From contig JAGBAZ010000035.1 of the NCBI GenBank assembly GCA_018110905.1, forward strand, positions 20,767 to 84,766: a stretch of 64,000 bases of DNA, given 5' to 3'. This document shows positions 31,069 to 57,342 of the stretch, one piece after another. A program made the translations under genes and the position numbers. The DNA comes from Oscillospiraceae bacterium (GTDB lineage: Bacteria; Bacillota; Clostridia; Oscillospirales; Ruminococcaceae). How positions within the stretch are numbered: the stretch's first letter is position 1; each line of letters begins with the position of its first letter. The notes beneath the pieces are model-generated. The model searched no databases, had not been told where the DNA came from, and was given only the letters and a program-made list of their open reading frames with translations.

Positions 31069-31174
31069 TTAATGTCTTATCAGTCAGACCTCTTGATTGC
31101 GCCGAAAGCATAAACCCCTCAAAAGCCTCGGAAATGCTTTCGTTATGCGCTTTTTTCATCATAATTCTTGCCAT
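31069..31174 (-). pseudogene. N-terminal fragment of a tyrosine recombinase/integrase (SAM-like core-binding segment only)
   Basis: MARIMMKKAHNESISEAFEGFMLSAQSRGLTDKTL resembles the start of phage-type integrases (..F..FL......GLS.KTI). Similarity is lost after ~35 aa and there is no catalytic domain. Confidence 0.35.
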
Positions 31175-32789
31175 AACTGTACCTCTTGAATGCTCTGAAT
31201 TTGGTACAAAATTCAAGCGCTGTAAAAGGTCTGTTTTTTGGCAATAAAAAAACCTTGAAACCGCATAGTTTCAAGGTTTTTTCGATATTTGGTGGAGCAG
31301 TTATCTGCAAAGATGAACACTCCCCAAAATCGCAGTTTTCCGCATCAAATGCCGCTTCAATATCATCAAACGGTATGTTCTCTATGTTTAATGGTTTTTT
31401 ACTGGCATTGATAATCAATGTAAAATATCCATCATACAAATAAATCGAGTGAACAAATATATTGATAATCGCCCTGCGTTTGTTTAAATCGTTTAGAGGC
31501 ATTTCACAAATATAATCAAGAAAAGCCAGAATTTGTGCTTCAGACAGACAAACTTTTTTATTGTTTTCAATGGCAAGCCGTTCCTCTAATTCTGCTTTTT
31601 CTGCCTGACGTTTATGAAGACGTTCTGTCAGCATTTCAACTGCTTGTCCTTTTTCAATTCCTTTCCAAAGATTCTCAATTGCTAAATCAACTTCTTTCAG
31701 AGCATTTTTGATTTCTTTTACGGAAATATTATCTGGATTTTTGCTGCATTCTTCTGCAATTTTCTCGGCTATATACTGAATTTTATCCTCCGTAAGCATT
31801 TTAAGACACTCTTTTACTATTCGATCTTCAATATATTCTTTTTTAATCATTTTCTTATCACATTGTTTTTTGCGTGCTTTCCTACACATATAATAATGAT
31901 ATTGTTTTCCGGATTTTCCGGTACCACCGTATCCTACCATCATTTCTTTGCAATATCCGCAAAAAAGTTTTGTAGTCAAAAGATATTCATTCTCTCCTCT
32001 TGTGCGTGCAGGAACAACTTTATTTTTGTTTAGAATATCCTGAACTTTATAAAATAAATCATCGTCCACTATTCTTGGCATTCCCCCCGGAGTTTCCATA
32101 TCTTTATACATATAAACTCCTATATAACGCTTATTTTCAAGTAAATGACTTAAGCTATTATATGTAAATACATTCCCAAGTGAAGTTTTAATTTTTCTTT
32201 GCTGCAAATCCTTTACTATCTCTGCCTTTGTTTCTCCTCTTGCATAACGTTCAAATATTTCACGAACGATTTTTGCTCCTTCTTCATCAACGGAAAAAGT
32301 TCTGTCTTTATTAACTTTAAAGCCAAGCCCCGGATTGCTTCCGTTAGATAAACATTTTTCGGCATTAATCAGCATGCCTCTGTGTATCTTCTGTGCAAGT
32401 TCCGCAGAATAATATTCTGCCATACTTTCAAGAACGCCCTCTATCAAAATTCCCGAAGCGTCATCGGTGATGTTCTCCCTTGCTGAAAGAACACGCACAC
32501 CGTTTTTCTTTAGCTTTGCTTTATAAATCGCACTGTCGTATCTGTTACGGGCAAAGCGGTCAAGCTGATAAACAAGTACGCCCTGAAAAGTATGTTTTTC
32601 ACTGTCTGCGATCATCTTTTGAAAGTCTGTACGATTATCAAACTTTCCGCTTTGAGCACGGTCTATATATTCACCGACAACCGTATATCCCATCCTTTCA
32701 GCGTAGGTATAACATTCTTTCAGCTGGCCTTCTATTGACTGTTCCGTCTGGCTGTGGCTCGAAAATCTGGCATAAATTACAACATTCAT
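31143..32789 (-). CDS. large serine recombinase (resolvase/invertase N-domain, recombinase domain, zinc ribbon, coiled coil)
   Basis: MNVVIYARFSSHSQTEQSIEGQ (catalytic Ser region), a Cys-rich zinc-ribbon segment CGYCKEMM...YYMCRKARKKQCDKK, and a coiled coil. The last ~45 codons read through palindrome copy B and into the integrase fragment. Confidence 0.88.
   Translation of the reverse strand: MNVVIYARFSSHSQTEQSIEGQLKECYTYAERMGYTVVGEYIDRAQSGKFDNRTDFQKMIADSEKHTFQGVLVYQLDRFARNRYDSAIYKAKLKKNGVRVLSARENITDDASGILIEGVLESMAEYYSAELAQKIHRGMLINAEKCLSNGSNPGLGFKVNKDRTFSVDEEGAKIVREIFERYARGETKAEIVKDLQQRKIKTSLGNVFTYNSLSHLLENKRYIGVYMYKDMETPGGMPRIVDDDLFYKVQDILNKNKVVPARTRGENEYLLTTKLFCGYCKEMMVGYGGTGKSGKQYHYYMCRKARKKQCDKKMIKKEYIEDRIVKECLKMLTEDKIQYIAEKIAEECSKNPDNISVKEIKNALKEVDLAIENLWKGIEKGQAVEMLTERLHKRQAEKAELEERLAIENNKKVCLSEAQILAFLDYICEMPLNDLNKRRAIINIFVHSIYLYDGYFTLIINASKKPLNIENIPFDDIEAAFDAENCDFGECSSLQITAPPNIEKTLKLCGFKVFLLPKNRPFTALEFCTKFRAFKRYSYGKNYDEKSA
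31247..31282. repeat. copy B of the 15-bp-arm palindrome, lying inside the 3' end of the serine recombinase ORF
   Basis: Same arms aaaaaaccttgaaac/gtttcaaggtttttt as 30975-31010, with a different 6-nt loop (cgcata). Confidence 0.6.
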
Positions 32790-32946: not shown

Positions 32947-35910
32947 TTAGCAAAAATACTCAACCAAAATTTTTGACAATCTTTTCTCATCAGTAGCCTT
33001 CATTCGTTCATTCATTAAAACATTACTAATATTTGAACGTATTTTGTTTCTTACGAAGGCATTCTTCAAAATTGATATGAGCACTGGTTTAGTAAAGAAC
33101 AACAACCAAGAAACATCAAATTTAGAAAAATCAAATTTATTGTACAAATAGAAAAAGTCAAACAGATTACTCTTACCTAAAAAACAAGAAAAGTTTTCCT
33201 TTTTAAGATTTCCCAAAAAGCACCAGTATGCCACTTGGTTCAATTCTTCATAACAATCTATCGGAGGAAACACTTGTATCGATTTTTTGCTTTGTTTGTT
33301 TTCAATTTGCTGATAAAGGAACATTTGCAATTTATTAATAACATCATCATTAATTTTTGCATTGTAGCCAATCAGTAAAGACAATAGCTGAAAATCGAAA
33401 TTCTTTTCCAAAGATTTTTTGGCCAGAGCAATGACTTTAGCTCGTTGATAAAAAGAAACATAGTTAATATAGTATTTTGCTACGTGATTTAACATAGTTG
33501 TGTCCTTCAGTTTAATTATTTTTGATACACGCAACGAAAGTCGTTTGGAATGGAACTCTTTTTCTGGTGAAATATACTGAACCAAATTATAATAGTTAAT
33601 GCCACTTGTCGCTGAAAAGACTTCAAACTTTCTCCCTTTTTCAATGGACTTTATGTGCATATCAATATAATCAATCAAAGCATCTTCCACTATTTTTCTT
33701 GTAAAACAACTATATTTTCTCTTTTTGTACAGTTGTTTATCTAAGAATAAAATTTTATCATCTATTAAAATGTCTCTAAAATCATATGAAAAGATGAATT
33801 TACACACCTTATCCACTATTTCTTGTGGAATGTCAATATATCTTAGAAGCGTTAAGCATTTCTTAATTTTTACTTGATATTCAATTTTCTCAAAAACACT
33901 ATTCGATTTCAAAACAACTTTCTCATAATACTCTATTAAATTATTAATTGCTTGACAAATTTTATCCATATTTTCGAATTCTATCGTATCTATATCATAT
34001 TTTTTAAAAAGTTTTATCATCGAATCGCTATTAAAATATTCAATAAAACAATAAAAATCTATGTCATCAAAAACAACTTTTCCTGAAGAAAACTTCAAAA
34101 AATCTTCTCCCGCAAGTTTCTTTTTTTCTTGTTCTGAATATTTATAAATTAGTAAACTCATCAGATTGCTTACCGTCTTCCTAAATTCTTCATATGAATC
34201 CAGAAACAACCCATTAGCCACAAGAAAATTTAAGTATTCATTAATTCTACATACAGCTTTTCCGCCACTTGATAATCCAAATTCTAATGAATTCGATTCT
34301 ATGGCGTTTTGTAATTTTTGTCCATCTACAAAAGCATTATATGAATATTTATACAGTAATGAGGATGAATTTAAATCTTTTAAGCTATCATACTTATTTT
34401 TAAATTCCACAGGAAGTCCATCAAAAAGTTTTCTTATTTGTTCTTCACTTAATGCGCTTTTTTCTATTTCTTTCAAATTAAAGCATCCATAGTACTGATC
34501 AGCATGTTTTATCGCATTACAAAGATTATTGCAATTCACTTGTGCCAGGTAATAAAGCAAATAATTTTTTTCTTTAAATGCATCTTTTGCTACTTTCAAG
34601 AACAAAAAATATGCCTCTTCAAACCTCATTAATCTTGTCAAATAATACGCTTTTTTATACAATTCAAATTTATTTGTTGTTTTTATCTTACAATAGCTAT
34701 CCATTTTCATATAATTAAAGCTCGTGCAATATAAATCAGCAAATTCGCAAGTCCCATCAATTTTAATAAAAGATTTATCAAATTCAATATTTGTAATTCC
34801 TGCTTTTAAAAATACTGTGGAAATAATTTCATACTTTTCTAAAACACTTTTTTCTATTTTTTCTCGTTCTTCTCTCTGAAGGCTGCTTATTTCTATGAAT
34901 TTTTTTAATACATTTTCGTTATATGGCAATGGAGATATTACACCATCATCACGAATATAAACATATTTTCCTATTTTTTCACGAATATCCTGTATCCTTA
35001 ACGCTCTTAATTGGTTTAATGGCCTTAAAAACTCACAAATAATTTCAAAAGCCTCTACATCACTTTTACCGTCAAACGAATACATGGAATAAGAATTAAT
35101 TGCCTGCAATACACTTATATATCTATCTATGTACGGCGTATCTTTATTAAAACCCTTTATAAAGTTTTTACATTCAATTACTTTCAGCCCTTTTGATTCG
35201 TGGTATAATAATGTTTCTTTACTTAATTCATCACTATCGGTATAAATGAAAATAGGCTCGTTAAATTGGTCCTTTAACAAAGTTTTTGCCCAATTTAATA
35301 CAAGTTTTATGTTATAGTCATTCAATCCATATCCAATAAATACTACTGTATTCATTGAAAAAACTGCTTTTAATACTGTTTCAATCAATTTAAAATTTTC
35401 ACTATAATTAAGGTAATCTTCTTCTTTTAAAACAATATTTTTGTGTTTTAAATCCCCATGTAATTTAAGAATATATTTATCACCATTAATTGATGATATT
35501 TCAGAATCACACGCAATTGATTTAAAGCTCTGAGCATTTTGAATTGCAGCTTCTTCGAGCAATTCATCAAAATTTGTTGTTACAAATGAACATGGATTAA
35601 ACCGCAATAACATCTTATGTATATCGTTGGGTAACAGTTTTACCTTTTTTAAACTTTTAGAGACAAAAGAATAATATTTTTTGTTATCTTGATTTATTGA
35701 ATAGTAATACATTTGAGGTATACGTAAACATTCATCAGACGTATATTTGCCTTTTGGTGTATCACCTAATTCCAAACACATAGAATCAATAAGATCAGAC
35801 CATTTAGGTGCACCAGAAACCGCAGATACCCCTGCGCCTACAAAAAAAGTCAAAGAATTATTTTGGGCCGCTTCTGTAATTCGTTTAAAAATTTCTTCGT
35901 ACATTTTCAT
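32947..35910 (-). CDS. SIR2-family (SIR2_2-type) protein with a ~700-aa helical C-terminal region; DSR1/DSR2-like defence architecture
   Basis: N-terminal LTFFVGAGVSAVSGAPKWSDL, TTNFDELLE, LKLHGDL (catalytic His context), VVFIGYGLNDYN. The rest is K/N/I/Y/F-rich and helical. The gene is strongly AT-rich. Confidence 0.78.
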   Translation of the reverse strand: MKMYEEIFKRITEAAQNNSLTFFVGAGVSAVSGAPKWSDLIDSMCLELGDTPKGKYTSDECLRIPQMYYYSINQDNKKYYSFVSKSLKKVKLLPNDIHKMLLRFNPCSFVTTNFDELLEEAAIQNAQSFKSIACDSEISSINGDKYILKLHGDLKHKNIVLKEEDYLNYSENFKLIETVLKAVFSMNTVVFIGYGLNDYNIKLVLNWAKTLLKDQFNEPIFIYTDSDELSKETLLYHESKGLKVIECKNFIKGFNKDTPYIDRYISVLQAINSYSMYSFDGKSDVEAFEIICEFLRPLNQLRALRIQDIREKIGKYVYIRDDGVISPLPYNENVLKKFIEISSLQREEREKIEKSVLEKYEIISTVFLKAGITNIEFDKSFIKIDGTCEFADLYCTSFNYMKMDSYCKIKTTNKFELYKKAYYLTRLMRFEEAYFLFLKVAKDAFKEKNYLLYYLAQVNCNNLCNAIKHADQYYGCFNLKEIEKSALSEEQIRKLFDGLPVEFKNKYDSLKDLNSSSLLYKYSYNAFVDGQKLQNAIESNSLEFGLSSGGKAVCRINEYLNFLVANGLFLDSYEEFRKTVSNLMSLLIYKYSEQEKKKLAGEDFLKFSSGKVVFDDIDFYCFIEYFNSDSMIKLFKKYDIDTIEFENMDKICQAINNLIEYYEKVVLKSNSVFEKIEYQVKIKKCLTLLRYIDIPQEIVDKVCKFIFSYDFRDILIDDKILFLDKQLYKKRKYSCFTRKIVEDALIDYIDMHIKSIEKGRKFEVFSATSGINYYNLVQYISPEKEFHSKRLSLRVSKIIKLKDTTMLNHVAKYYINYVSFYQRAKVIALAKKSLEKNFDFQLLSLLIGYNAKINDDVINKLQMFLYQQIENKQSKKSIQVFPPIDCYEELNQVAYWCFLGNLKKENFSCFLGKSNLFDFFYLYNKFDFSKFDVSWLLFFTKPVLISILKNAFVRNKIRSNISNVLMNERMKATDEKRLSKILVEYFC

Positions 35911-36316: not shown

Positions 36317-37183
36317 TCACCGTTCTCGCTCTTTCTGCTTGATGAGATGTTTTGCGTAGTATTCGCAGGCCTTGAGCACGAAGTCTTCGAGCTGTTTGCG
36401 GCTTCCTTTAGGAACATATTTTTCTATTTTTGCAACCGGAACTTTGAACATTTCCCGCTGGTTTGCCTTTTCTTCGGACATGATTTTCTGTATTTCTTCG
36501 GAAGTGAGCTTGCCTTCCTGCGAAAGTTTTTTCATGCGGTTCGCCTGTGAAAGGGAAGGAGTGCAGTCATTGAGCACCACATGCTCAAGCAAAGTTCTCT
36601 GTTCCTGCTCGGTCAGAAATGAAAGTTCAACAGCCGGAGTGAAAGCGATTTTTCCTTCGTCCACAAGTATCAGGAGTTCGCCGATAAGCTGGGTAAGGCG
36701 GATATATCTGCGTATCTGTTCTCTGCTTTCGCTGTTTTGTTCGCCTACCATTTCATTTGTACGGAACTTCGACCCAACTTGTGTCGAAGTTAGGTCAGAG
36801 CGGTAACCCTGCCGGTTCATAGCTTCCAGCTTCATTTTGTAGGCGAATGCTTTTTCCGAAGGAAGAACATGTTCCCGGAAAAGGTTGCTGTCCACCAGCA
36901 TAACAATAGCGTCTTCACGGCTGATGTCATAAACTATCACCGGAACTTCTTTAAGCCCAAGCCGCCTTGCGGCAAAAAGTCTGCGGTGCCCGGATATTAT
37001 CTCGTATTCTCCTTCCGCGTTTTCCAAAGGACGAACCAACAGTGGCATGGCGATGCCTTGCTCACTTATGCTTTCTTCAAGGCTTTCCATATCCGCATCG
37101 TCCCGGACTTTGTATGGGTTGCCTTCAAAAGGGTGAAGTTTCGTTATCTCAATGTTCTCTATAAATCTTTCTGTATTTTTCAT
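36317..37183 (-). CDS. ParB/Sulfiredoxin-domain (ParB-like nuclease) protein
   Basis: GNPYKVRDDADMESLEESISEQGIAMPLLVRP...YEIISGHRRLFAARRLG is the ParB N-terminal domain signature. Confidence 0.82.
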   Translation of the reverse strand: MKNTERFIENIEITKLHPFEGNPYKVRDDADMESLEESISEQGIAMPLLVRPLENAEGEYEIISGHRRLFAARRLGLKEVPVIVYDISREDAIVMLVDSNLFREHVLPSEKAFAYKMKLEAMNRQGYRSDLTSTQVGSKFRTNEMVGEQNSESREQIRRYIRLTQLIGELLILVDEGKIAFTPAVELSFLTEQEQRTLLEHVVLNDCTPSLSQANRMKKLSQEGKLTSEEIQKIMSEEKANQREMFKVPVAKIEKYVPKGSRKQLEDFVLKACEYYAKHLIKQKERER

Positions 37184-37188
37184 GTATA

Positions 37189-38565
37189 TTACCTCTCTCT
37201 CGATCGTTGTCTGATTTTTTCTTTTTCCAAAACGGAAACTTCCATTTCCATTTCCGTTTTTAAAAGTTCTTTGATTTTCGGAATGTTTTCCGCTATTTCT
37301 TCTGCGGTTTTCTTTCGTTTTCGTAAAGGCGCTATCTCTGCGGAAATATCTTTTGCTCTCTGTTTTAATTTTTCCTCTTCTTCGGGCGTTTTAACCCTCC
37401 GGATTTTGTTATAGATTTTCTGACGCTCGTTTTCGAGATTTTTTATCTTTTCTTCCGTTTCTTCGATAAATGAAAGAAGCTCCTCACCGGTTTCGATTTC
37501 GAATCCGGCAAGAAGCCTTATCTGCTCATTGTATTTATCCAATTTTCTGACCTCATCACGCAGTAGCGGCGAAACGGGTCTTTTCCTTTCCGGCGCATTA
37601 AGGTTCAGCGCATGCAGGAGCATATCTATGAATATCTGCATCAACAGCTGAATCGCGTCCATCTGCATGGCTTTTCTAAATTCTATCTCAATTTCATAAA
37701 GCGGAGTCTTCGGTTTCTTAATCCAGTTCCGCGGTTCAAATTCCGGGTGGTTGGGATTTTGCAAAATACGCTTTTTGATATTTTCCTCGGTATATTTTTC
37801 TCCGAGAGAATCTATGCGGACAGCTCTTTTCCAGCCAGGTGCGATGATTGACGGGTGCGCATAGTTTCCGTTTCTCACATATCGGTAACCCAGCATCATA
37901 AGCTGATGATCGAACTGCTGCCTCGTCATCGCAACGGAAAGTGCCTCATCAATATCTCTTTTGAGCATATCTCTGTGGGTCATGCCGCCGTTCTTATGGA
38001 TCCAGTATTCTTTCTTTTTGCCCTTGCCGTAAAAGTTTGAACCCTTCAGAACGGATTTTCCGTATTCCTTGCATATCTCGTCCGATTCTTCCCGGAGCGC
38101 AATATGGTCGCGGATATGGTTTTCGTATTTCTTTCCGTCAACGAATGATACAGAATTTATGACTATATGATTATGGATATTGTCCGTATTGAGATGGGTG
38201 GTGACTACTATCTCGAATCTTCCTCCCCACATTCTTCTTGCGGTTTTGACGCCGATTTCGTGCGCTTCTTCGGGAGTGACTTCTCCGGTTTTAAAGCTCT
38301 GATAACCATGATATGCAACGTTTCCGCCCTGTTTTCCGAATCTCGCTTTAGTTGCGCTCATCTGTTCGTATGCGGTTTTCGGTGAGCAGTTTATGCCACT
38401 TACATACATCTTTTTATCGGTTTTACTGTCATTTTCCGCATAGCGGATAACATACCACAAATCCTCATCGACACATTTTTTATCAATTGTCTTATCCGGG
38501 TTTTCGGCATAATCTATCACATCTTTGAGCCTGCTTTTAACAGGCCAGAATCCCGTTGTTGCCAT
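37189..38565 (-). CDS. relaxase/mobilization nuclease (MobA/VirD2-type relaxase domain)
   Basis: HLNTDNIHNHIVINSV histidine triad (HxDxxxxHxH-like). Long C-terminal coiled coil. Start overlaps the mobC stop. Confidence 0.82.
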   Translation of the reverse strand: MATTGFWPVKSRLKDVIDYAENPDKTIDKKCVDEDLWYVIRYAENDSKTDKKMYVSGINCSPKTAYEQMSATKARFGKQGGNVAYHGYQSFKTGEVTPEEAHEIGVKTARRMWGGRFEIVVTTHLNTDNIHNHIVINSVSFVDGKKYENHIRDHIALREESDEICKEYGKSVLKGSNFYGKGKKKEYWIHKNGGMTHRDMLKRDIDEALSVAMTRQQFDHQLMMLGYRYVRNGNYAHPSIIAPGWKRAVRIDSLGEKYTEENIKKRILQNPNHPEFEPRNWIKKPKTPLYEIEIEFRKAMQMDAIQLLMQIFIDMLLHALNLNAPERKRPVSPLLRDEVRKLDKYNEQIRLLAGFEIETGEELLSFIEETEEKIKNLENERQKIYNKIRRVKTPEEEEKLKQRAKDISAEIAPLRKRKKTAEEIAENIPKIKELLKTEMEMEVSVLEKEKIRQRSRER

Positions 38566-43404: not shown

Positions 43405-43782
43405 TTATTTACAAATTATTTCCCGGTTGATTATTTCTTCGGCCCTATTGCGTATATTGTTCATTCTTTGAACCCATTCCATTTGATTTCGCTCTTTGAG
43501 CATCTCGTTTACACCCTCGTGCTCGTATATTTGTTTAATGAGCATAGCTTTCATATTTTGAGCACGCTCGTCAATCTCCACAAGGTATGCATTCAATTTT
43601 CCAGTTGTCAGCAGATTTGTGTAACGCACTTTTTTGTGCTGTTTTATATATCTGAGGTGCCGCATACCCCAAATACCTATTTCTTTTTCTTCAATTTGTA
43701 GTGGAAGAAGATTTGGGAGATAATATTCTCCGCAAAGAGTGTAATCAAGTCCGTTTTTCTTGTTATAAATTGTCAGTTCCAT
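43405..43782 (-). CDS. tnpV: TnpV-like transposon-encoded protein
   Basis: MELTIYNKKNGLDYTLCGEYYLPNL...IGIWGMRHLRYIKQHKKVRYTNLLTTGKLNAYLVEID is characteristic of TnpV of clostridial mobilizable transposons. Start at ATG 43782 with an AGAGGTGAG RBS. Confidence 0.72.
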   Translation of the reverse strand: MELTIYNKKNGLDYTLCGEYYLPNLLPLQIEEKEIGIWGMRHLRYIKQHKKVRYTNLLTTGKLNAYLVEIDERAQNMKAMLIKQIYEHEGVNEMLKERNQMEWVQRMNNIRNRAEEIINREIICK

Positions 43783-43786
43783 GTGC

Positions 43787-43969
43787 TCACCTCTTTGCAA
43801 ACCATTTTATTTTCGGCTTGGTATCTATAATCTTTATCATAAGATCATCCACCGCATCCGTATATCGACCTTGCTGAATAAGAGAATTTCTTAAAACATT
43901 CAGAGCATTTATTACTATTCTGTATTCATAGCCATCAAGTTCCAGACAATATTTTTTCTCCATGCTCAA
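43787..43969 (-). CDS. tnpW: TnpW-like small transposon-encoded protein
   Basis: 60 aa, LELDGYEYRIVINALNVLRNSLIQQGRYTDAVDDLMIKI, located directly upstream of tnpV. Confidence 0.55.
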   Translation of the reverse strand: MSMEKKYCLELDGYEYRIVINALNVLRNSLIQQGRYTDAVDDLMIKIIDTKPKIKWFAKR

Positions 43970-44259
43970 TCCTCCTTCAGCATACCGTTTTCCGGCAGAA
44001 CGAATACATCATAAGTAAATCTTGCCCCTAATCTGAATCCAGTAACAAAGCTATCAACAACTGATTTTCCGTCAACGATTCCCCAAGCATCGACATATTC
44101 GAGGAATAATTTCTTGTCTTCCAACGGAAGCTTTTCCAAAAGCACGTCCTCATTTTCATATAATACTTTCATTTCTCTGCTGTAATTTCTGCTTTCTTTC
44201 CGCTTTTTGTTTTGCGGTTCAATGTTCCCATAATAAAGCTCTTCAATAAAATTTACCAT
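43966..44259 (-). CDS. small conserved mobile-element protein (97 aa)
   Basis: LYYGNIEPQ N-terminal motif seen in small proteins of clostridial transposons. First gene behind the 44280-44315 promoter-like motif. AAGGAGG RBS. Confidence 0.5.
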   Translation of the reverse strand: MVNFIEELYYGNIEPQNKKRKESRNYSREMKVLYENEDVLLEKLPLEDKKLFLEYVDAWGIVDGKSVVDSFVTGFRLGARFTYDVFVLPENGMLKED

Positions 44260-44364: not shown

Positions 44365-44874
44365 TTATCCATTTTCAATAACCATATCCAACAGTTTCTG
44401 CCATTCATCAAACGATACAAAATGCATAAATTTCTCTTTATCAAAATCAGATGCTGCCATAAAACCGATGAACCCTTTTTGCTTATCAGAACCAACCATG
44501 CCCCAAACATATGAATGTACAATACAGTTGCACAACTCTTTTGTTTTTAGTGTAATGTTTTTTCCGTTATCGTAACTGAAAGCACATACTCTTCCACGGA
44601 AAGTCCAGCATTCATCACCGATGTAAGGAAATTTTATTGCAGAGATTGTAATGTCTTTAATGTTTTTACCTGGAAGAGTTATATTTTTGTCTTTTGCCAA
44701 TTTCTCCAACTCTATTTCTTCTTCAATGGCCTTCCGTATTATGACAGCGGAATATAGAATTGCACGGTCTAATTGGTGTCTGCTGTATTCACTATAAGCA
44801 GATGTTCTTTTCCAAAAAGATATTGCCCACGATAATTTTTTAAGTTCCCATTTCCATCTTCCGTCAAGAACCAT
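44365..44874 (-). CDS. hypothetical protein (169 aa), third gene of the TcmP operon
   Basis: 52 nt downstream of the three-Cys gene on the same strand, followed by a terminator. No motif recognised. Confidence 0.5.
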   Translation of the reverse strand: MVLDGRWKWELKKLSWAISFWKRTSAYSEYSRHQLDRAILYSAVIIRKAIEEEIELEKLAKDKNITLPGKNIKDITISAIKFPYIGDECWTFRGRVCAFSYDNGKNITLKTKELCNCIVHSYVWGMVGSDKQKGFIGFMAASDFDKEKFMHFVSFDEWQKLLDMVIENG

Positions 44875-44926
44875 AGGTCACCTCATTGCACAATGGTAAA
44901 ATCTTTTTCTGTTCATAAATTAGCAC

Positions 44927-45709
44927 TTATCTTATATCCTTCTCACACATATCTGTGACCGTTCCTTCTTTTATATGGCATTTCTTATTATTTTCTTTAC
45001 AAAATTCTTCAACTGTCTGCGCGCATGAATTAAAAAATTGTTTGTAGTTTCTATATTCTGACACTTTTTTGTTGTAATTTAGCCTTCCGAAAATAATTTT
45101 ATCGCAAAAGCTAATTGCTTCAAGAATTGTTTTTATATCTTGCTCAATAAAGTTCGGAGTAGGATATGGTTCAATACTAACCCATGTTTTACATCCTTTA
45201 TCATGCAAATTTTTTAAAGCTTGGATTCTTTCTTCAATGGGTGCAGCATATGGTTCAAAATTATTAATAAAATTTTTATTTAAAGAAACTAATGTTATAC
45301 CATATTCATTTTCCAACGACAAATCCGCAAGATTAATTGGCAAAATTCCTTTTGTTAGAACAGTACACTTAATACCTGCATTATTTAATTTTTTTATAAT
45401 CAAGTACGACATTTCTGAAACCTCTTTATATCCATACATAAATGGATCTGAAGTAAAACAAAGATGTACCGATTTAATTTTGTTTCTATATTTTGGAATT
45501 TCTTGATCAATTATGTCAAGAGCATTTTCAACTAGCTTTGGTTCGCACCACTCTTCGTAAGTCCTTGCCTTTCCAAATCGTTTTGCCATTGCCATCGCAT
45601 AGCAAGGATATTTGCAACCGTGGGAACACCCCTGAATATGGTTAATTGTATAATCTCCGTATTCTACGCCAGTCTTATACAACAATGATTTTCGTTTTAT
45701 ATGTTTCAT
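44927..45709 (-). CDS. three-Cys-motif radical-SAM-like protein (SplB/COG1533-like)
   Basis: NHIQGCSHGCKYPCYA is a CX3CX3C variant of the GC.HGC.YCYA motif of SplB-like radical SAM proteins. ATGA overlap with the upstream TcmP-like gene. Confidence 0.65.
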   Translation of the reverse strand: MKHIKRKSLLYKTGVEYGDYTINHIQGCSHGCKYPCYAMAMAKRFGKARTYEEWCEPKLVENALDIIDQEIPKYRNKIKSVHLCFTSDPFMYGYKEVSEMSYLIIKKLNNAGIKCTVLTKGILPINLADLSLENEYGITLVSLNKNFINNFEPYAAPIEERIQALKNLHDKGCKTWVSIEPYPTPNFIEQDIKTILEAISFCDKIIFGRLNYNKKVSEYRNYKQFFNSCAQTVEEFCKENNKKCHIKEGTVTDMCEKDIR

Positions 45710-46578
45710 CCTATTTTCTCCGCACTTTTTATAATACCTTTTACAAGTTTAGACGCCAAACTTTGGGCTTTCGCACTTTTATTTGTCATCATAAAGCAAA
45801 GCATAAACATAGGCGCATTCTTGCTTTTGTTTTTTAACAATTTTGAATCCGGTGAAACAAATGGAAAAATGGTAGAAAACCTTGCTTTTATATATTCTAA
45901 TACTTTTTCATATTCAACCCTTTCATACTGAGGCTCATCAAAGAAACTCATCTGCGGAGATTCAACAAACAATTCGTCAAGCCAATTTTGATTTCCCAAA
46001 ATTGAAGATATTTTCTCCTTATTAGTGTCCGATATGTCTTTATTTTTTGCCATAAGTCTAACAACTGAAAGAGGAAACAGATACCATAAGTCAACTCTGT
46101 TGCATTTGGATATTTTTTCAAGCGTCTCCCATTTTAATTCCAATGCATATGGATCTAAAAACATCAAACATCTATCATATATCGTAGTTCGCGCCAGAAC
46201 TTTTGTCAGCTCTTCGTTACAATCCCCACTAATAAAATGAATTTTATCAATTTTTTGAGGATATGAGTTTTCTACATTTTCTTCCAATAGCTTTATTCTA
46301 TCCTCATCAAGTTCTAAAAAATAATATTCGTCGAAATCATATTTTAAAGACAACAATGCTGAACCATCTATAATGGCTGCACATTGTTCTCCACTCTTGC
46401 TTTCATGTTTTAATTCGGTTTTCCCACTTCCTGCAAAACCATCAATGTATATCTTTCTAACTTTTTGATTTTTTAAGGCTATAAGATAAGTTTTAGCATA
46501 TTCTTCAATAATATATAATTTTTGTATAGTCCATTCACCGCCAAAATGACTGCCTTTTTGTTTTGTTTGTTTTCCCAT
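45706..46578 (-). CDS. tcmP: three-Cys-motif partner protein TcmP-like (methyltransferase-fold)
   Basis: GGEWTIQKL...YIDGFAGSG (SAM-binding motif I-like) and MFLDPYA (DPPY-like motif IV, as in RlmJ-type enzymes). Family name recalled from NCBI/TIGRFAMs annotation, not verified here. Confidence 0.65.
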   Translation of the reverse strand: MGKQTKQKGSHFGGEWTIQKLYIIEEYAKTYLIALKNQKVRKIYIDGFAGSGKTELKHESKSGEQCAAIIDGSALLSLKYDFDEYYFLELDEDRIKLLEENVENSYPQKIDKIHFISGDCNEELTKVLARTTIYDRCLMFLDPYALELKWETLEKISKCNRVDLWYLFPLSVVRLMAKNKDISDTNKEKISSILGNQNWLDELFVESPQMSFFDEPQYERVEYEKVLEYIKARFSTIFPFVSPDSKLLKNKSKNAPMFMLCFMMTNKSAKAQSLASKLVKGIIKSAEKIG

Positions 46579-46693: not shown

Positions 46694-46722
46694 AAAGCTG
46701 GAGGCTTTTTGCCTCCAGCTTT
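46694..46722. terminator. 12-bp stem hairpin after hsdR
   Basis: aaagctggaggc-ttttt-gcctccagcttt, 11 nt downstream of the hsdR stop. Confidence 0.55.
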
Positions 46723-49886: not shown

Positions 49887-51245
49887 TCATTTTATTATTT
49901 GCAAAACTTCAATGAATTTTTTCAATTCTTCAGCATTTTTCTTGTATGGCTCATACACTCCGCCCCATGTGTACTTAAAACGAATCAATCCGCCTTTATT
50001 ATTATGAACATTATACCATGTAAATAAAATCGCTGACGGAAGACTTAATGTTTCTGGGAAAGTATAAACTGTGGAGTCGTTTGCATAAGAACTACGATTT
50101 ATATCAAATTTTATTTGATTAAACCTTTTACTAAAAAATTCAACAAATGGTGGTTTTGCAGCGTTTGAATATTGTACAAATATACTATCAAAAGAATTTA
50201 CATTTATTTTATTAGTACCTACAAATGCTCTATACCCATACTTATAATACATTACTATAGCCAATAATTCCACGCACATAAAAGAATAGTCTTTTTTATC
50301 CGTATATAAAAGTTTATGTATAAGCATCGCTCTATGCATCAGTTCTTCCTGTGTTCTTGGTTCTATATCTTTAAATATTATTTGTAAATACTCTTCTATA
50401 GGTTCATCAAAAAAAACAATATCTTTGTCGAACAGTTCTACGTAGTCCGCATACTTCTCTGTTATTTTTTCTGATACCTCACCTTTATCAAGTTTGATTT
50501 CAAAATTGATAAACTTTTCAAGATATTTATTCCCTTCAGCAAAACCAAAAAGATGTTTGACACTACACTCAAGCTGCTTTTTATCTGTCGCAATAATTGT
50601 TATTATATTGCTTTTTTCTTCTGTAAGATGGTGGAGGCGTTCAAGCACTTTAATAGCATATTCGGGTATGCACCTATCAAGCTCATCTACGATAATTACA
50701 ACTGTGTGTTCATCTGCAATTTCTTGAAGAAGATTAGAAAGTTTCTCTATAACCTTGTTAAGCCCAAGATATGTATCATACGCATGGTCTTTTTCGTATT
50801 TTTCGGCTCCTTCTTTTTCACCTTTAATTACGGTTTCAACTGCGCTTTTAATATCAATACCCGTTTCAGCTTTAATTGCAGTATTAGCCAATGACAGCAA
50901 CGAAACTCCTGCCGCTTTAAGCATACCGATTATTTCCTGCTTTTCTTTCTCATCAGAAAATAGAGCTGTTTTTTTCTCAATCTCTGCAATTATTGTTGAC
51001 ACTATGGCTATGAGCGGTTCTTCATAATAATCGTGTTTCCAACTGTTATATCTAACAACAAAATATTTTTCAGAATAAAGGCTATTCAGTTGTTCTTCAA
51101 TCATATCAAGAACAAAGCTTTTACCTGTACCCCATTCACCATCTATTGCAAAACAAGTTGAAACTTTATTGTCAGATATATTCTCAAGCAAATTTATAAC
51201 CTGTTCAACAAATGCTCCGCGATTTAATATATCCAGCTTGTCCAT
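49887..51245 (-). CDS. KAP-family P-loop NTPase embedded between hsdS and hsdR
   Basis: KAP-type Walker A DGEWGTGKSF and Walker B VVIIVDELDRC. Start at ATG 51245 with a GAGGTG RBS inside the hsdS 3' end. 13 nt upstream of hsdR. Confidence 0.82.
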   Translation of the reverse strand: MDKLDILNRGAFVEQVINLLENISDNKVSTCFAIDGEWGTGKSFVLDMIEEQLNSLYSEKYFVVRYNSWKHDYYEEPLIAIVSTIIAEIEKKTALFSDEKEKQEIIGMLKAAGVSLLSLANTAIKAETGIDIKSAVETVIKGEKEGAEKYEKDHAYDTYLGLNKVIEKLSNLLQEIADEHTVVIIVDELDRCIPEYAIKVLERLHHLTEEKSNIITIIATDKKQLECSVKHLFGFAEGNKYLEKFINFEIKLDKGEVSEKITEKYADYVELFDKDIVFFDEPIEEYLQIIFKDIEPRTQEELMHRAMLIHKLLYTDKKDYSFMCVELLAIVMYYKYGYRAFVGTNKINVNSFDSIFVQYSNAAKPPFVEFFSKRFNQIKFDINRSSYANDSTVYTFPETLSLPSAILFTWYNVHNNKGGLIRFKYTWGGVYEPYKKNAEELKKFIEVLQIIK

Positions 51246-51249
51246 AAAC

Positions 51250-52452
51250 TTACACCTCAATTTCCCCGCTCATCAGTTTTGGCAACAAACGATCACGAGC
51301 CTGCTGAAGTAAAATAATTTGCTTTGCCAATCCGTTTATTTTTTCTATAATTGGTTTAATCTGCTGTCCAAAATCCTCTGCTTTATCCTTGTTTGGAATA
51401 AGGATTGGCATGTTTTTAAAGTCTTTCCAACGCACATATGGCATCGTTGTGCCAACCGAGATTTGCGTTGCGTAATCAACTGTATCGGTAGAAAACAGCA
51501 GCATAACAACATAAGCCCAATATTCACTTTCTTTGGCATTAAGCACAAAGCATGTTGTTCTCGTAATACCGCTATCCCGTGCAACCGCTACTTTGTGGAA
51601 ATACGGACGCATTGCACCAAATATGATGTCTTTACCGGCAAAAGCAACTAATGAACTTTCTGCTAATGCCACACTATTAGTATCAACATACCCCAATGAC
51701 TTTTTGGGAATACAATCTATCGGTAAATAGTAAGTGTAGTTCCCTCGTTTTTCTTTAGATATCTTTTTTCCGGTTTCTGCTACAACATCACCAAGCGCTC
51801 CAGGTTTCCACCCTTCCGGCACGCCATCTACTATTGCCACATTTTCATGCCCCGGGAAACGCAAATCCACAAACCATTCCTTATAAAGGCGTTGTGCAGC
51901 TTCTTCAAGAAGTTTGATTTGCTTCTGGTTGTTTTCTATAAGAGAATCATAATTAGATAAAATATTCGATACTTTTTCTTGTGTTTTTCTGTCTGGGAAA
52001 TTAATTTCTAATTCCCCTATTTGTCTTAAATTGATATTAGGTTGTGCCGATTGACTTTGTACCGTATTTACTTTTTTTATTAATTCCGGGAGGTTCAAAT
52101 AATAATACACAAACTCATTAGAACATTTTTCATTATCGACTCTTATAAGTGCCGTTGCTTGATTTGTGTTTGCAGGAACATCTTCGGAACGAACCATTGC
52201 TGTTTTTCCCAAATATGCTCCTGCCATTGAAAATAAAATATCCCCTTCAATCAGTTTTGAGCGTTTTAATTTTTCATTTGTTTCTGGAGAAATATACAAA
52301 AACTCTCCAGTAACATATTTAGATGCAGTTAGCATTTCTGAACGAATGTATTTAACGCCAGATTCAGTAAAAGTTTCTCCGATATTCGATGGGGTTGTCC
52401 CTTTTGTTATTACAGTACATACGTCTGCCAACTTTACTATTTCCCAGCTCAT
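51250..52452 (-). CDS. hsdS: type I restriction-modification system specificity subunit
   Basis: Two target-recognition domains separated by conserved helical spacers (QKQIKLLEEAAQRLYKEWF and AKQIILLQQARDRLLPKLM). ATGA overlap with hsdM. Confidence 0.9.
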   Translation of the reverse strand: MSWEIVKLADVCTVITKGTTPSNIGETFTESGVKYIRSEMLTASKYVTGEFLYISPETNEKLKRSKLIEGDILFSMAGAYLGKTAMVRSEDVPANTNQATALIRVDNEKCSNEFVYYYLNLPELIKKVNTVQSQSAQPNINLRQIGELEINFPDRKTQEKVSNILSNYDSLIENNQKQIKLLEEAAQRLYKEWFVDLRFPGHENVAIVDGVPEGWKPGALGDVVAETGKKISKEKRGNYTYYLPIDCIPKKSLGYVDTNSVALAESSLVAFAGKDIIFGAMRPYFHKVAVARDSGITRTTCFVLNAKESEYWAYVVMLLFSTDTVDYATQISVGTTMPYVRWKDFKNMPILIPNKDKAEDFGQQIKPIIEKINGLAKQIILLQQARDRLLPKLMSGEIEV

Positions 52453-54470: not shown

Positions 54471-54558
54471 CCTTTAAATAATTATAAATATCCATTTTCA
54501 TTATATAGCGGATACAGTTTCAAATCAATTATTTCCCATATAATTTGTATTTTTATGC

Positions 54559-55500
54559 TTAAAATATATCCACATGTCCTTTAACCATTTCCCGGAAATT
54601 GCCAACTTCTGTTTTATAATTGCACCGAATAAGTTCACTGGAAATTATTTCATACACTTTTCTATTTCTGTTATTATCAGAAAACGCTTCAATAACAGAA
54701 ATACCGTTTTTGGTAAGCCTTGTTTTTATTCTGTACATTATTCCGCTAACATAAAGCTGAAGAGGCAGCAGAGTATGTTCCAAATAATCTTTTTCTATTT
54801 TTCTCAGTTTAGAGTAATACGCAAATCTTAAAGCATCATCGGATGCAGTAGTACGTTTTTCAACTTTAAAAACGCTATCAGGATATAGACCACGCATTTC
54901 AACTTTGCAAATTCCAAATCTGTTTCTTCTTTCCCAAATGTCAGTCTCCGCAAGTTCTTTCATGTTTTGCGCAAGTTCTTTTGAGATTTTCAGTTTATAA
55001 ACATGTCCATTATCCTCGTGCAAAGTTACGATATTTTCGCCTACTTCTTTAGCCCTGAGATTTTTTAATACACTTAAATCATCGTTATAAACTCCCTCAT
55101 AAATACACTGGAAAAGTGTACGATAATATAAGGAATTAAACTCTTCATAAACATCAATATCATGTAAAATTTGTTTGTACATTTCGTACCCTACAAACTT
55201 CTTTTTACATATTGGTTTAACTTTTTTCCAAATGGCTTTTTTATCAATTCCTTTTACAGCCTCCAAAAAAGTATTGTCCGCAAGACCTTTTTCATTTAAC
55301 CATTTTGCATAAAGGTTTAAAACATAGCAATGCGTAACTATTGTTTTCGGGCTATTAGGTTTTAAGTCAAGTATATATTTTTCAAGGTCCTCAGTGCTAT
55401 ATTTTTCTATATTGTCATCAAAATTTTTAAGAACATGTTTTACAACTTTTGCAGTGTTTGGGATTTCTATAGAATCAATAAAATCTTTTGTTTTGCTCAC
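54559..55500 (-). CDS. hypothetical protein with tyrosine-recombinase-like layout but no clear catalytic residues
   Basis: N-terminal SAM-like segment (SPKTIVTHCYVLNLYAKWLNEKGL). A later LFQCIYEGVYNDDLSVLKNL and DDALRFAY resemble degenerate integrase boxes. R/H/Y catalytic positions could not be assigned. Confidence 0.35.
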   Translation of the reverse strand: MSKTKDFIDSIEIPNTAKVVKHVLKNFDDNIEKYSTEDLEKYILDLKPNSPKTIVTHCYVLNLYAKWLNEKGLADNTFLEAVKGIDKKAIWKKVKPICKKKFVGYEMYKQILHDIDVYEEFNSLYYRTLFQCIYEGVYNDDLSVLKNLRAKEVGENIVTLHEDNGHVYKLKISKELAQNMKELAETDIWERRNRFGICKVEMRGLYPDSVFKVEKRTTASDDALRFAYYSKLRKIEKDYLEHTLLPLQLYVSGIMYRIKTRLTKNGISVIEAFSDNNRNRKVYEIISSELIRCNYKTEVGNFREMVKGHVDIF

Positions 55501-55519
55501 TTTTATCCCTTCTCAATAA

Positions 55520-57253
55520 TCATTTTTCATTGAATACTGTCTGAAGTCTTGCTTTTGCGTCTTCAATCTGTTTTTTCAGACTTTCAATTTCATCTAATAT
55601 TTCCTGATATCTTTTGGCAATATGATTTTGTTCTTCCATTGAAGGTAACGGAATATTAACTTTTTTGAGTTTATCTACACCGATGTTTGGAATAGTTGCG
55701 CCGACCGTAATACTTTTCAAAACAGCAATTCCTTGTTCGCTTTCAAAGAAAGCCTTAACGTAATACGGATTTGCTTTAACCCCGTCCAACTCAATTATGT
55801 AGAGATTTCCGTTGGCCAAAATCTTCTGACCTTCAATTACAGAAGCAACTGCGACTTTATAGGGATACCCATTTTTTGAAAGGATGAGATTTCCATCCTT
55901 AAGACAGTATTTATCAAGTTTTGAATCTATTTCAGACAAATGCGGAAGATCCTTGTCAATGATTCCATCCTGAATATTCGAAAGCATGAGATATTGCATA
56001 TTTGTTTCTTCTTCAGTAGCAATCTCATCAAGCTGTGTAGCCGTGCATTGTGCGCCTCGAGTAATACTCTTTATCACATCCTCGAAAGGCACGGCATTTT
56101 CAAACTCAATATCTTTTTTAAGATATCTGCTGAGACTAAGTGCATATTCATTCTCCATAAGTTCGTTTACGGAAATCGTTCTGCTGTTATCAGAATCATT
56201 TTGGAAAAGTTGAAGAATTATATCTATGTCTTCATTACTGAATGTGTTTTGTCTACGGCCTTGCTGACAGATTTCTGTAGCATCGATCATTCTTACACCA
56301 GTATTACCATAGCTGAAAACAACCATTGTTGTGGAAATAGCTGTGAAGTTGAACATTTTAGCTGGAAGAGAAATGACACTTTCTATCATCCCTTTTTCAA
56401 CAAAATGTCTTCTCATCGGCATATCTATGCTATTCCAAGTACTTCCGTTTGTCATAATTCCTATTGCTTTTCCGTTTTCTTTTAATGAATCGCAGATGAG
56501 AGCAGAAAAAATCCAGTCGGAAGAAGTTGCTTTTGAAAGATCGGGATATTTTTGGGTAAGATTTTCAAAATATTTTGCGCCTGAATCGAGGTTTTTCAAA
56601 TGAAGGCCAAAAGGATAATTAGAGAATATTTTATCAAATTTATAATTGCCTTCCACTAAATCAAAAGCATCAATGCACTTAAAAACAATGTCTGCATTTA
56701 AAATATCGGCTTTAATCTCCGCAAAGGTCTTGTTTCTTTCGTTGATTTCATATCCGTAAAGTTCTGCACTATGTTCCTCAAAACTTTCAGAAATCAAATA
56801 AGTACCCGTTCCGCAGCAAATATCTGCAACTTTTTCTCCTCTATTTACGCCAAGAATTTTCTTTGCAAGATTGACTACAGAATCCGGAGTTGCAACGTCA
56901 TCAAAAGAGGGGTATTCATCAATTAAGGAAAGTATTGTTTTTGCAAAATCTTTACTGCTATATTTGAAACTAAGTTTTAACAGCTCAAACCATTTCTTTT
57001 CATCGAGGAATTCTTTTGCAAAATTTGTCACGAATTCATTGTCCGTAACTTTGCCAAAAATAATTTCTTCAAAAGACACAGTATGGGGAGCATTGAAAAA
57101 GCTGATTTTGTAAAGAAGATATGCTGCAACAATAGAACAATAAGGATTTTTGCTAATTTCTTCTTTCAAGCATGCTGCTATTTCAGACGAAATCTGTTTT
57201 GCAATTTTTTTGTTTTCTTTATCGTCAATGGAAAATTCTTTTGGATAGTTCAT
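55520..57253 (-). CDS. N6-adenine DNA methyltransferase fused to a single HsdS-like target-recognition domain
   Basis: TPDSVVNLAKKIL..GEKVADICCGTGTYL (motif I), FDKIFSNYPFG (motif IV-like, NYPF instead of NPPF/Y), and a C-terminal TRD ending in the HsdS-type helix EEQNHIAKRYQEILDEIESLKKQIEDAKARL. Confidence 0.78.
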   Translation of the reverse strand: MNYPKEFSIDDKENKKIAKQISSEIAACLKEEISKNPYCSIVAAYLLYKISFFNAPHTVSFEEIIFGKVTDNEFVTNFAKEFLDEKKWFELLKLSFKYSSKDFAKTILSLIDEYPSFDDVATPDSVVNLAKKILGVNRGEKVADICCGTGTYLISESFEEHSAELYGYEINERNKTFAEIKADILNADIVFKCIDAFDLVEGNYKFDKIFSNYPFGLHLKNLDSGAKYFENLTQKYPDLSKATSSDWIFSALICDSLKENGKAIGIMTNGSTWNSIDMPMRRHFVEKGMIESVISLPAKMFNFTAISTTMVVFSYGNTGVRMIDATEICQQGRRQNTFSNEDIDIILQLFQNDSDNSRTISVNELMENEYALSLSRYLKKDIEFENAVPFEDVIKSITRGAQCTATQLDEIATEEETNMQYLMLSNIQDGIIDKDLPHLSEIDSKLDKYCLKDGNLILSKNGYPYKVAVASVIEGQKILANGNLYIIELDGVKANPYYVKAFFESEQGIAVLKSITVGATIPNIGVDKLKKVNIPLPSMEEQNHIAKRYQEILDEIESLKKQIEDAKARLQTVFNEK

Positions 57254-57313: not shown

Positions 57314-57342
57314 AGTATAACACCCGTCAAGCAGCTTGTCAA
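57314..57342 (-). promoter_or_regulatory. sigma-A-like promoter upstream of the methyltransferase-TRD gene
   Basis: Minus strand has TTGACA, a 17-nt spacer, then TATACT, about 60 nt upstream of ATG 57253. Confidence 0.55.

Follow-up and report, generated by a model that had tools for sequence, protein, structure and literature searches.

In the prr locus of Escherichia coli, the genes of a type I restriction-modification (R-M) system and of PrrC have the published order hsdM-hsdS-prrC-hsdR (PMC3014915). In PrrC an ABC-type ATPase is joined to a HEPN anticodon nuclease; it occurs almost exclusively as an embedded gene, and is kept latent by binding to Hsd proteins, a demonstrated feature. Other defence genes nested in hsd operons, TgvAB of Vibrio VPI-2 and the Rlo genes of Campylobacter, are independent of HsdR (PMC11411939); TgvAB, a GmrSD-like type IV restriction system, and the Rlo genes belong to protein families unrelated to KAP. 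Nesting in type I R-M, BREX or DISARM loci is also the definition of the PDC families, which are untested candidates (Payne et al. 2024, 'guilt-by-embedding', bioRxiv 10.1101/2024.01.29.577857). Among KAP proteins, protection by the enterococcal EF_KAP requires the Walker B motif and the C-terminal region and proceeds with no abortive infection, and three tested proteins (MaG KAP 1-3) were taken from human gut metagenomes, with assignments to Faecalibacterium, Lachnospira and one unclassified contig (PMC13552941). Here we describe a KAP-family P-loop nucleoside triphosphatase (NTPase) gene between hsdS and hsdR in a 64,000-nucleotide (nt) stretch of DNA from an Oscillospiraceae bacterium (GenBank assembly GCA_018110905.1, contig JAGBAZ010000035.1, positions 20,767 to 84,766), referred to below as the window. 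It is moderately probable that the KAP protein is an autonomous sensor switch driven by nucleoside triphosphate (NTP), carried in the hsdS-hsdR slot as accessory single-protein defence cargo.

The open reading frame (ORF) map and domain scans of the window placed all operon features on the minus strand, at the coordinates that an earlier note on this DNA had given, in the type I R-M gene order hsdM, hsdS, KAP gene, hsdR (Table 1). The KAP gene thus lies in the same slot as prrC, as that note had claimed, and the junctions it had described were all read directly in the sequence. One ATGA contains both the hsdS start and the hsdM stop; the hsdS 3′ end is ...GAAATTGAGGTGTAA / GAGGTGTAA; the GAGGTG is 7 nt upstream of the KAP ATG (51243-51245), which begins 4 nt on from the hsdS stop; and 13 nt (AAGGGATGACAAC) lie between the KAP TGA and the hsdR ATG. 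A promoter/terminator scan, in which site counts were not above those of shuffled sequence and which therefore gives weak support for operon boundaries, found nothing resembling a strong promoter or terminator between the three genes hsdS, KAP and hsdR. Because the junctions are coupled and strong internal sites are missing, the KAP gene is probably co-transcribed with the hsd genes, and the earlier claim of co-transcription appears right. The 12-base-pair (bp) hairpin past hsdR is likely the operon end; it has no T-run and is absent from the terminator-scan output, and in blastn the homology between the window and locus L001, from a goat-gut Oscillospiraceae metagenome-assembled genome, stops there. 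A TTGACC-17-TATAAT site lies 3′ of the hairpin, before the next gene (sequence reading and scan). The guanine-cytosine (GC) content is 32% in the KAP gene vs 37-41% in the hsd genes.

Profile matches place the gene in both the KAP NTPase family and PADLOC PDC-S20. Pfam KAP_NTPase (PF07693) matched residues 11-254 with 112.6 bits (cut-off 20), and PDC-S20 (PDLC04957) matched residues 1-451 against model positions 1-445 of 446 (E 2.1e-143). The embedding that defines PDC families was found both in the window operon and in 23 of the 31 homologues described below, all in type I hsd operons; since the protein matches PDC-S20, family and arrangement are already catalogued. A homologue search returned 2311 proteins with E < 1e-5, the best 120 listed being all of ~450 amino acids (aa), and PDB sequence searches with the KAP protein and with a 61-sequence profile gave nothing meaningful. 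The Walker A (GEWGTGKSF) and Walker B (IIVDELDRC) motifs that had been read from the window are present and invariant or nearly so in 61 aligned homologues, with G36, W38, G41 and K42 invariant in the former and V186, D187, E188, L189, D190, R191 and C192 in the latter; the ATPase motifs are strictly kept in more than 60 full-length homologues, at identities down to 54%. No transmembrane segment was predicted, in agreement with the earlier reading (peak 19-residue Kyte-Doolittle mean 1.42, residues 105-124), and membrane helices inserted in the P-loop domain, which are typical of many KAP members but not of all, are not predicted in this protein. The insert between the Walker motifs (residues 96-165) varies in identity to homologues from 16% to 84%.

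PrrC and the KAP protein are both NTPases encoded by accessory genes in the same slot of a type I R-M operon. Of the features that define PrrC and RloC, the KAP gene shares the hsdS-hsdR location. An ABC-type ATPase domain was not found, Pfam and PADLOC giving only KAP and AAA-type matches, and a HEPN domain had no match in Pfam or PADLOC, the C-terminal domain being without a fold match in the PDB. Where PrrC joins an ABC-type ATPase to a HEPN nuclease, the KAP protein joins a KAP/AAA+-like ATPase to an orphan C-terminal domain. By sequence, the KAP protein is unrelated to PrrC and the likeness is one of position only; latency through Hsd binding is for the KAP protein hypothetical only. The best fold match of the KAP model was RdrA of the RADAR system, a ring-forming defence ATPase, a modelled likeness that is by fold only. 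RdrA, of ~830 aa, has the deaminase RdrB as its partner, whereas the KAP protein has 452 aa and a different C-terminal part; PADLOC gave no RdrA-family sequence match, and RdrB deaminase was not found nearby. QatA of QatABCD shares the NTPase domain (PADLOC 4.5e-25, NCBIfam 7e-27) over approximately the first 230-290 residues only; the NCBIfam score was 94.3 bits against an equivalog cut-off of 600, and there were no QatB, QatC or QatD neighbours. PifA of the F plasmid likewise shares the NTPase domain (PADLOC 1.2e-21), its 720-position model covering residues 25-254 only. Membership in the PrrC/RloC, QatA or RdrA families was rejected after these defining features had been tested. The KAP proteins of PMC13552941 are, like the window protein, single-gene KAP NTPases in which no fold is known for the C-terminal region. 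EF_KAP differs in having transmembrane helices and a 322-aa C-terminal region, whereas the window protein is soluble with a 117-aa domain, and the genes of that study were found beside small serine recombinases, not in hsd operons; the KAP homologue at L019 adjoins a small resolvase.

Homologues were sampled by scanning a single genome of each GTDB species with KAP, which gave 31 real homologues, and their hsd context was set by mapping the window Hsd proteins onto each locus. Twenty-three (74%) belonged to type I hsd operons and shared their strand. This is far beyond chance, and the count of KAP genes in hsd operons that the earlier note had proposed as a check thus showed the arrangement to be recurrent in many gut Clostridia. 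In 21 of the 23 embedded homologues hsdR was directly downstream, and one was cut by the contig end. In L008 (5914-9233) the order hsdM-hsdS-KAP runs straight into ABC transporter permease genes, hsdR having been lost, and in L031 (8001-8396) a 132-aa KAP relic remains between hsdS and hsdR; both are decay states of the arrangement. The KAP copies of L049 and L023 were truncated or frameshifted, and the reading frame was intact in 29 of the 31 genome loci. The named hosts were animal-gut Clostridia and relatives.

While PrrC is nearly always embedded, about a quarter of the KAP family is not: eight intact homologues were outside hsd operons. Their surroundings included a type II R-M system with Vsr-Dcm, HpaII and Dcm genes, after which the KAP copy lies (L024), a Schlafen-type helicase (L021), a WYL protein with a small resolvase (L019), Fic and tRNA synthetase (L010), ParB (L012) and, with L017 as an example, housekeeping genes. 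All eight keep the same C-terminal domain type. The plasmid and phage collections gave only distant NTPase-domain matches and a single Treponema relative of 31% identity, with no evident sign that the family is carried by phages. The relative is encoded in the tail of an hsd operon, with Fic, HNH and abortive infection (Abi) genes for neighbours. The locus (L034, Treponema saccharophilum plasmid pTS1, NZ_AP025289.1 297007-314179) is a type I operon loaded with embedded genes for an ATP-binding protein, a winged helix-turn-helix (wHTH) regulator, ORF6N, Fic, HNH, a KAP-like NTPase and an Abi-family protein, and represents the same embedding habit in a distant phylum.

The contents of the slot were surveyed by an HsdR-based metagenome scan, which yielded 80 operons of the same R-M lineage (HsdR 83-90% identical), 73 of them with both hsdS and hsdR and so with a junction that could be counted. 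The KAP gene was present in 8 junctions, 9 were empty, consisting of the hsdS stop, ~15 nt and the hsdR ATG, and 56 held other cargo from at least 15 families. Annotated alternatives were PDC-S19 (DUF3644), PDC-S51 (DUF3800), PDC-S56 and PDC-M59A, and some KAP-holding slots also contained an OLD-like ABC ATPase or an AbiJ_NTD4 protein. The commonest cargo family (281 aa, 17 loci) and four others had no match in Pfam, PADLOC or NCBIfam, and these unmatched families may be uncatalogued defence candidates. Example cargo loci, among L035-L114 and others, are L099:6144-6989, L023:7287-7985, L085:4585-5406, L060:4521-5603 and L061:5702-6418. Cassette borders fell exactly at the hsdS stop and at the hsdR ribosome-binding site, with the hsdS 3′ end and the hsdR 5′ end conserved on either side, and cargo types including KAP were interleaved on the HsdR tree, on which the KAP operons were scattered. 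Since the slot may be empty or otherwise filled, the tree is interleaved and the borders are sharp, the R-M system can do without the KAP gene and the cargo is often exchanged, an exchange that would occur by recombination in the conserved flanks.

The goat-gut locus L001 contains a near-identical operon (HsdR 99%, KAP 93% identical). Its second hsdS target-recognition domain is replaced relative to the window (L001:6788-8000 vs window 51246-51805), between operons that are 94-96% identical in DNA, and an additional 180-aa gene with a weak SLATT-like match lies between hsdS and the KAP gene. On alignment, these differences indicate recent recombination at the slot.

The whole KAP protein was modelled with AlphaFold2 at a mean predicted local distance difference test (pLDDT) score of 79.6; the model was weak only at the first four residues and at 120-160, which are inside the insert (insert pLDDT 33-57). 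The top PDB fold matches were RdrA (8hr8, E 1.4e-6, template modelling (TM) score ~0.45) and ORC/Cdc6, and within the limits of the model they indicate an AAA+-like ATPase with a helical lid. The earlier note had described a C-terminal region of ~200 aa without recognisable motif. Its second part, residues 336-452, is indeed without known fold, but residues 256-335 are a conserved helical part of the ATPase in which R297, Q299, H310, D319 and E326 are nearly invariant, and they go with the ATPase and not with the C-terminal domain. A separate model of residues 330-452 reached a pLDDT of 91.8 and a predicted TM (pTM) score of 0.85. Searching the C-terminal region, as the note had suggested, turned up no effector-like features; what emerged was that residues 336-452 form a separate alpha/beta orphan domain. 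Foldseek found no match for it in the PDB (best E 0.89) or among viral proteins in BFVD (best E 0.64). Winged-helix and nuclease identities were dropped because these searches gave no usable match, none being better than E 0.6.

HMMER was run exhaustively with residues 256-452 on 1.84 billion representative proteins and gave 112 matches. The full-length ones have ~420-650 aa (most 440-490), with the aligned part starting at about the same position after the ATPase, and among the 112 the C-terminal domain was never seen fused to another module, being confined to the C-terminus of the KAP subfamily. As every full-length match has the same layout, the domain is taken to be private to this subfamily, and a shared portable effector domain at the C-terminus was rejected. 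Conserved positions in the domain are mostly of the hydrophobic core (Y336, P365, F367, W410, L441 and F444), the only conserved polar residues are N437 and K443, and no catalytic-type residue constellation was found in the conservation analysis. Mean conservation is 0.54 in the C-terminal domain vs 0.75-0.80 elsewhere in the protein. No nuclease or other toxic domain was found in the KAP protein with Pfam, PADLOC or PDB fold search.

Homologues were also compared with the window protein region by region. C-terminal identity was 25-35% where the ATPase was 60-80% identical. L004 was 80% identical in the N-terminal, 64% in the middle and 29% in the C-terminal region; the values were 88, 100 and 97 for L001, and ~65, ~80 and ~58 for both L002 and L003. 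Residues 96-165 were a second variable region. The alignments thus portray the KAP protein as a mosaic, the C-terminal domain of which is evolving much faster than the ATPase. A Hsd-docking segment was sought by region-wise identity in embedded vs non-embedded copies, and no region differed. Identity drops to ~30% in the variable KAP regions but is high throughout in HsdR, HsdM and the conserved parts of HsdS (Hsd partners >83%). Because a docking module for conserved Hsd partners should itself be conserved, such a module is unlikely in the C-terminus, and rapid mosaic change would fit recognition of variable phage factors better than it fits Hsd docking.

In the favoured reading, the KAP protein would be a switch that NTP drives and that works on its own. 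A phage-derived trigger would be recognised by the variable C-terminal domain, possibly with a contribution from the insert of residues 96-165, and nucleotide-dependent oligomerisation of the RdrA/ORC-like ATPase would then lead to an antiviral output, the candidates being that NTP is consumed without check, that a phage factor is sequestered or that a host target is acted on. Embedding would give co-expression and co-transfer with the R-M system, providing a second layer against phages that escape restriction, with no obligatory control of the KAP protein by the R-M complex. Autonomy is proposed because the eight intact homologues outside hsd operons keep the same C-terminal domain type with no region less conserved, a character of cargo because slot contents vary, the HsdR tree is interleaved, borders are exact and the GC content of the KAP gene is lower, and a sensor-like C-terminus because of low identity, mosaicism, conservation of the hydrophobic core only and an orphan fold. 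The tested KAP proteins serve as experimental precedent (PMC13552941), and the fold matches to RdrA and ORC/Cdc6 are in line with this reading. Several points weigh on the other side. The 74% of homologues in type I operons, nearly always directly upstream of hsdR, are compatible with a functional tie to HsdR; the oligomerisation step draws solely on fold similarity (TM ~0.45) in a predicted structure; and no effector activity can be assigned to the protein. The cargo frequencies are rough, the metagenome contigs not having been dereplicated, the MaG KAP proteins are likened to the window protein by description and not by sequence, and 'PDC-S20' is named in no searchable paper, so that no reported test of this exact family was found there.

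The KAP protein might instead be a guardian as PrrC is, held latent on HsdM2S/HsdR and freed when an anti-restriction protein disables the R-M system, whereupon infection is aborted. The earlier note had proposed an R-M-guarded defence analogue of this sort, and part of its case stands, namely the slot, the recurrence and the PDC-S20 listing; slot modularity, the eight copies outside hsd operons and the divergent C-terminus speak against the remainder. The KAP gene and prrC occupy identical slots (hsdM-hsdS-X-hsdR; PMC3014915), coupling to hsdR is tight with its 13-nt gap, most homologues (23 of 31) belong to type I operons and nearly always adjoin hsdR, one more (L024) follows a type II R-M system, and the 31%-identical relative occurs in a Treponema hsd operon tail. 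Yet the same R-M lineage has an empty slot or many other cargoes, with turnover between close HsdR relatives, and intact homologues exist away from any R-M system. Within the protein, the variable regions are ~30% identical against the conserved HsdR, HsdM and hsdS parts, no region is selectively conserved in embedded copies, and neither a nuclease or other toxic domain nor homology to PrrC is present. We therefore consider such latency on the R-M complex unlikely. A version in which a non-homologous analogue of PrrC docks on HsdR or HsdM2S and fires once a phage anti-restriction protein has put restriction out of action, its C-terminal domain reads the phage inhibitor and the slot is a general docking bay for guardians is less likely again.

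That the ATPase is an accessory factor of the R-M system, tuning assembly, restriction alleviation or HsdR activity, for example to protect the host during a specificity change or after transfer of the mobile element, appears very improbable. Co-transcription directly ahead of hsdR would suit this role, as would an ORC/Cdc6-like ATPase and lid typical of loaders and assembly factors, and the swapping of hsdS specificity domains between close relatives (L001 vs the window) creates a risk of self-restriction. The gene is however absent from most operons of the lineage, some slots being empty, and homologues occur without any R-M system nearby; the alternative occupants are of defence or Abi type (AbiJ_NTD4, OLD-like ATPase, PDC-S19, PDC-S51 and PDC-S56), and fast C-terminal diversification is more in keeping with conflict with phages than with the upkeep of a conserved enzyme. 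We give least probability of all to a non-defence passenger, a selfish or decaying gene kept by linkage to a successful R-M cassette. Its lower GC content than that of the neighbours, the 132-aa relic in L031 and the truncated or frameshifted copies in L049 and L023 would be expected of one, but the family is large, its ATPase motifs are strictly kept in >60 full-length homologues, even those of only 54% identity, 29 of 31 genome loci have intact reading frames, and related KAP proteins have experimentally shown defence (PMC13552941).

If the family is validated, a compact soluble KAP NTPase would be added to the single-gene defence repertoire of gut Clostridia and would offer a tractable case of how KAP recognition leads to immunity, as no effector domain is attached. 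For that reason, and because natural variation is clean, the protein is a good experimental target. The wider picture of the slot is perhaps more useful than the KAP gene, as it readily supplies defence candidates and sets up a natural experiment in which the dependence of embedded genes on the host R-M system can be examined.

Table 1. Positions of the type I operon genes, of signals around them and of parts of the KAP protein in the window
Feature	Position	Strand	Evidence
Promoter-like site TTGATT-17-TATAAT, 5′ of hsdM	54500..54528	-	Consensus scan
hsdM, type I methyltransferase subunit, 673 aa	52449..54470	-	Pfam N6_Mtase 3.6e-71 and HsdM_N; PADLOC MTase_I 1.4e-290
hsdS, specificity subunit, 400 aa	51250..52452	-	Pfam Methylase_S, two stretches
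GAGGTG ribosome-binding site of the KAP gene, within the final hsdS codons	51253..51258	-	Sequence reading
KAP-family P-loop NTPase, 452 aa, PDC-S20 member	49887..51245	-	Pfam KAP_NTPase 2.9e-32; PADLOC PDLC04957
Walker A GEWGTGKSF, residues 36-44	51114..51140	-	Translation
KAP-specific insert between Walker A and B, residues 96-165; soluble, variable	50751..50960	-	Low-confidence model
Walker B IIVDELDRC, residues 184-192	50670..50696	-	Translation
Conserved helical lid-like region, residues 256-335	50241..50480	-	Alignments; RdrA/ORC-Cdc6 ATPase and lid fold match
C-terminal orphan alpha/beta domain, residues 336-452; fast-evolving, aromatic-rich, mildly basic	49890..50240	-	Separate model; conservation
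hsdR, restriction subunit, 1046 aa	46733..49873	-	Pfam HSDR_N, SWI2_SNF2, T1R_D3-like, T1RH-like_C; PADLOC REase_I 4.2e-161
12-bp GC-rich hairpin directly past the hsdR stop	46694..46722	-	Sequence reading; blastn breakpoint

A mobilisable element, in a gut bacterium of the Clostridia, carries the operon. Genes for a large serine recombinase, ParB, a MobA/VirD2 relaxase, TnpV and DUF6809 were found at 31143-32789, 36317-38565 and 43405-44259, and with such mobile-element genes nearby the whole defence cluster rides on an integrative mobilisable element. Defence-type genes in the vicinity encode a SIR2_2 protein, a DUF4143 ATPase, a pair of TcmP and a radical S-adenosylmethionine (radical-SAM) protein (PDC-M41), and a methyltransferase-specificity (M-S) fusion.

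Just past the hsdR hairpin, TcmP (three-Cys-motif partner), the radical-SAM gene and a 169-aa ORF lie at 44365-46578 on the minus strand with a promoter-like site of their own. TcmP matched PADLOC PDC-M41A strongly and the radical-SAM protein matched PDC-M41B weakly. This block is missing from the otherwise near-identical L001 and is for that reason regarded as a separate insertion. Upstream of hsdM, at 54559-57253 on the minus strand, a 577-aa methyltransferase is fused to a single specificity domain (N6_Mtase and Methylase_S) and is followed by a 313-aa protein with no match in Pfam, PADLOC or NCBIfam; a stronger promoter-like site (57314-57342, consensus scan) lies upstream of the fusion gene, and together the two genes may form another modification or restriction module, one of an unusual kind. 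At 32947-35910, also on the minus strand, is a 987-aa protein with an N-terminal SIR2_2 domain, of which only residues 5-233 gave a ThsA-like PADLOC match, the other ~750 residues being without annotation.

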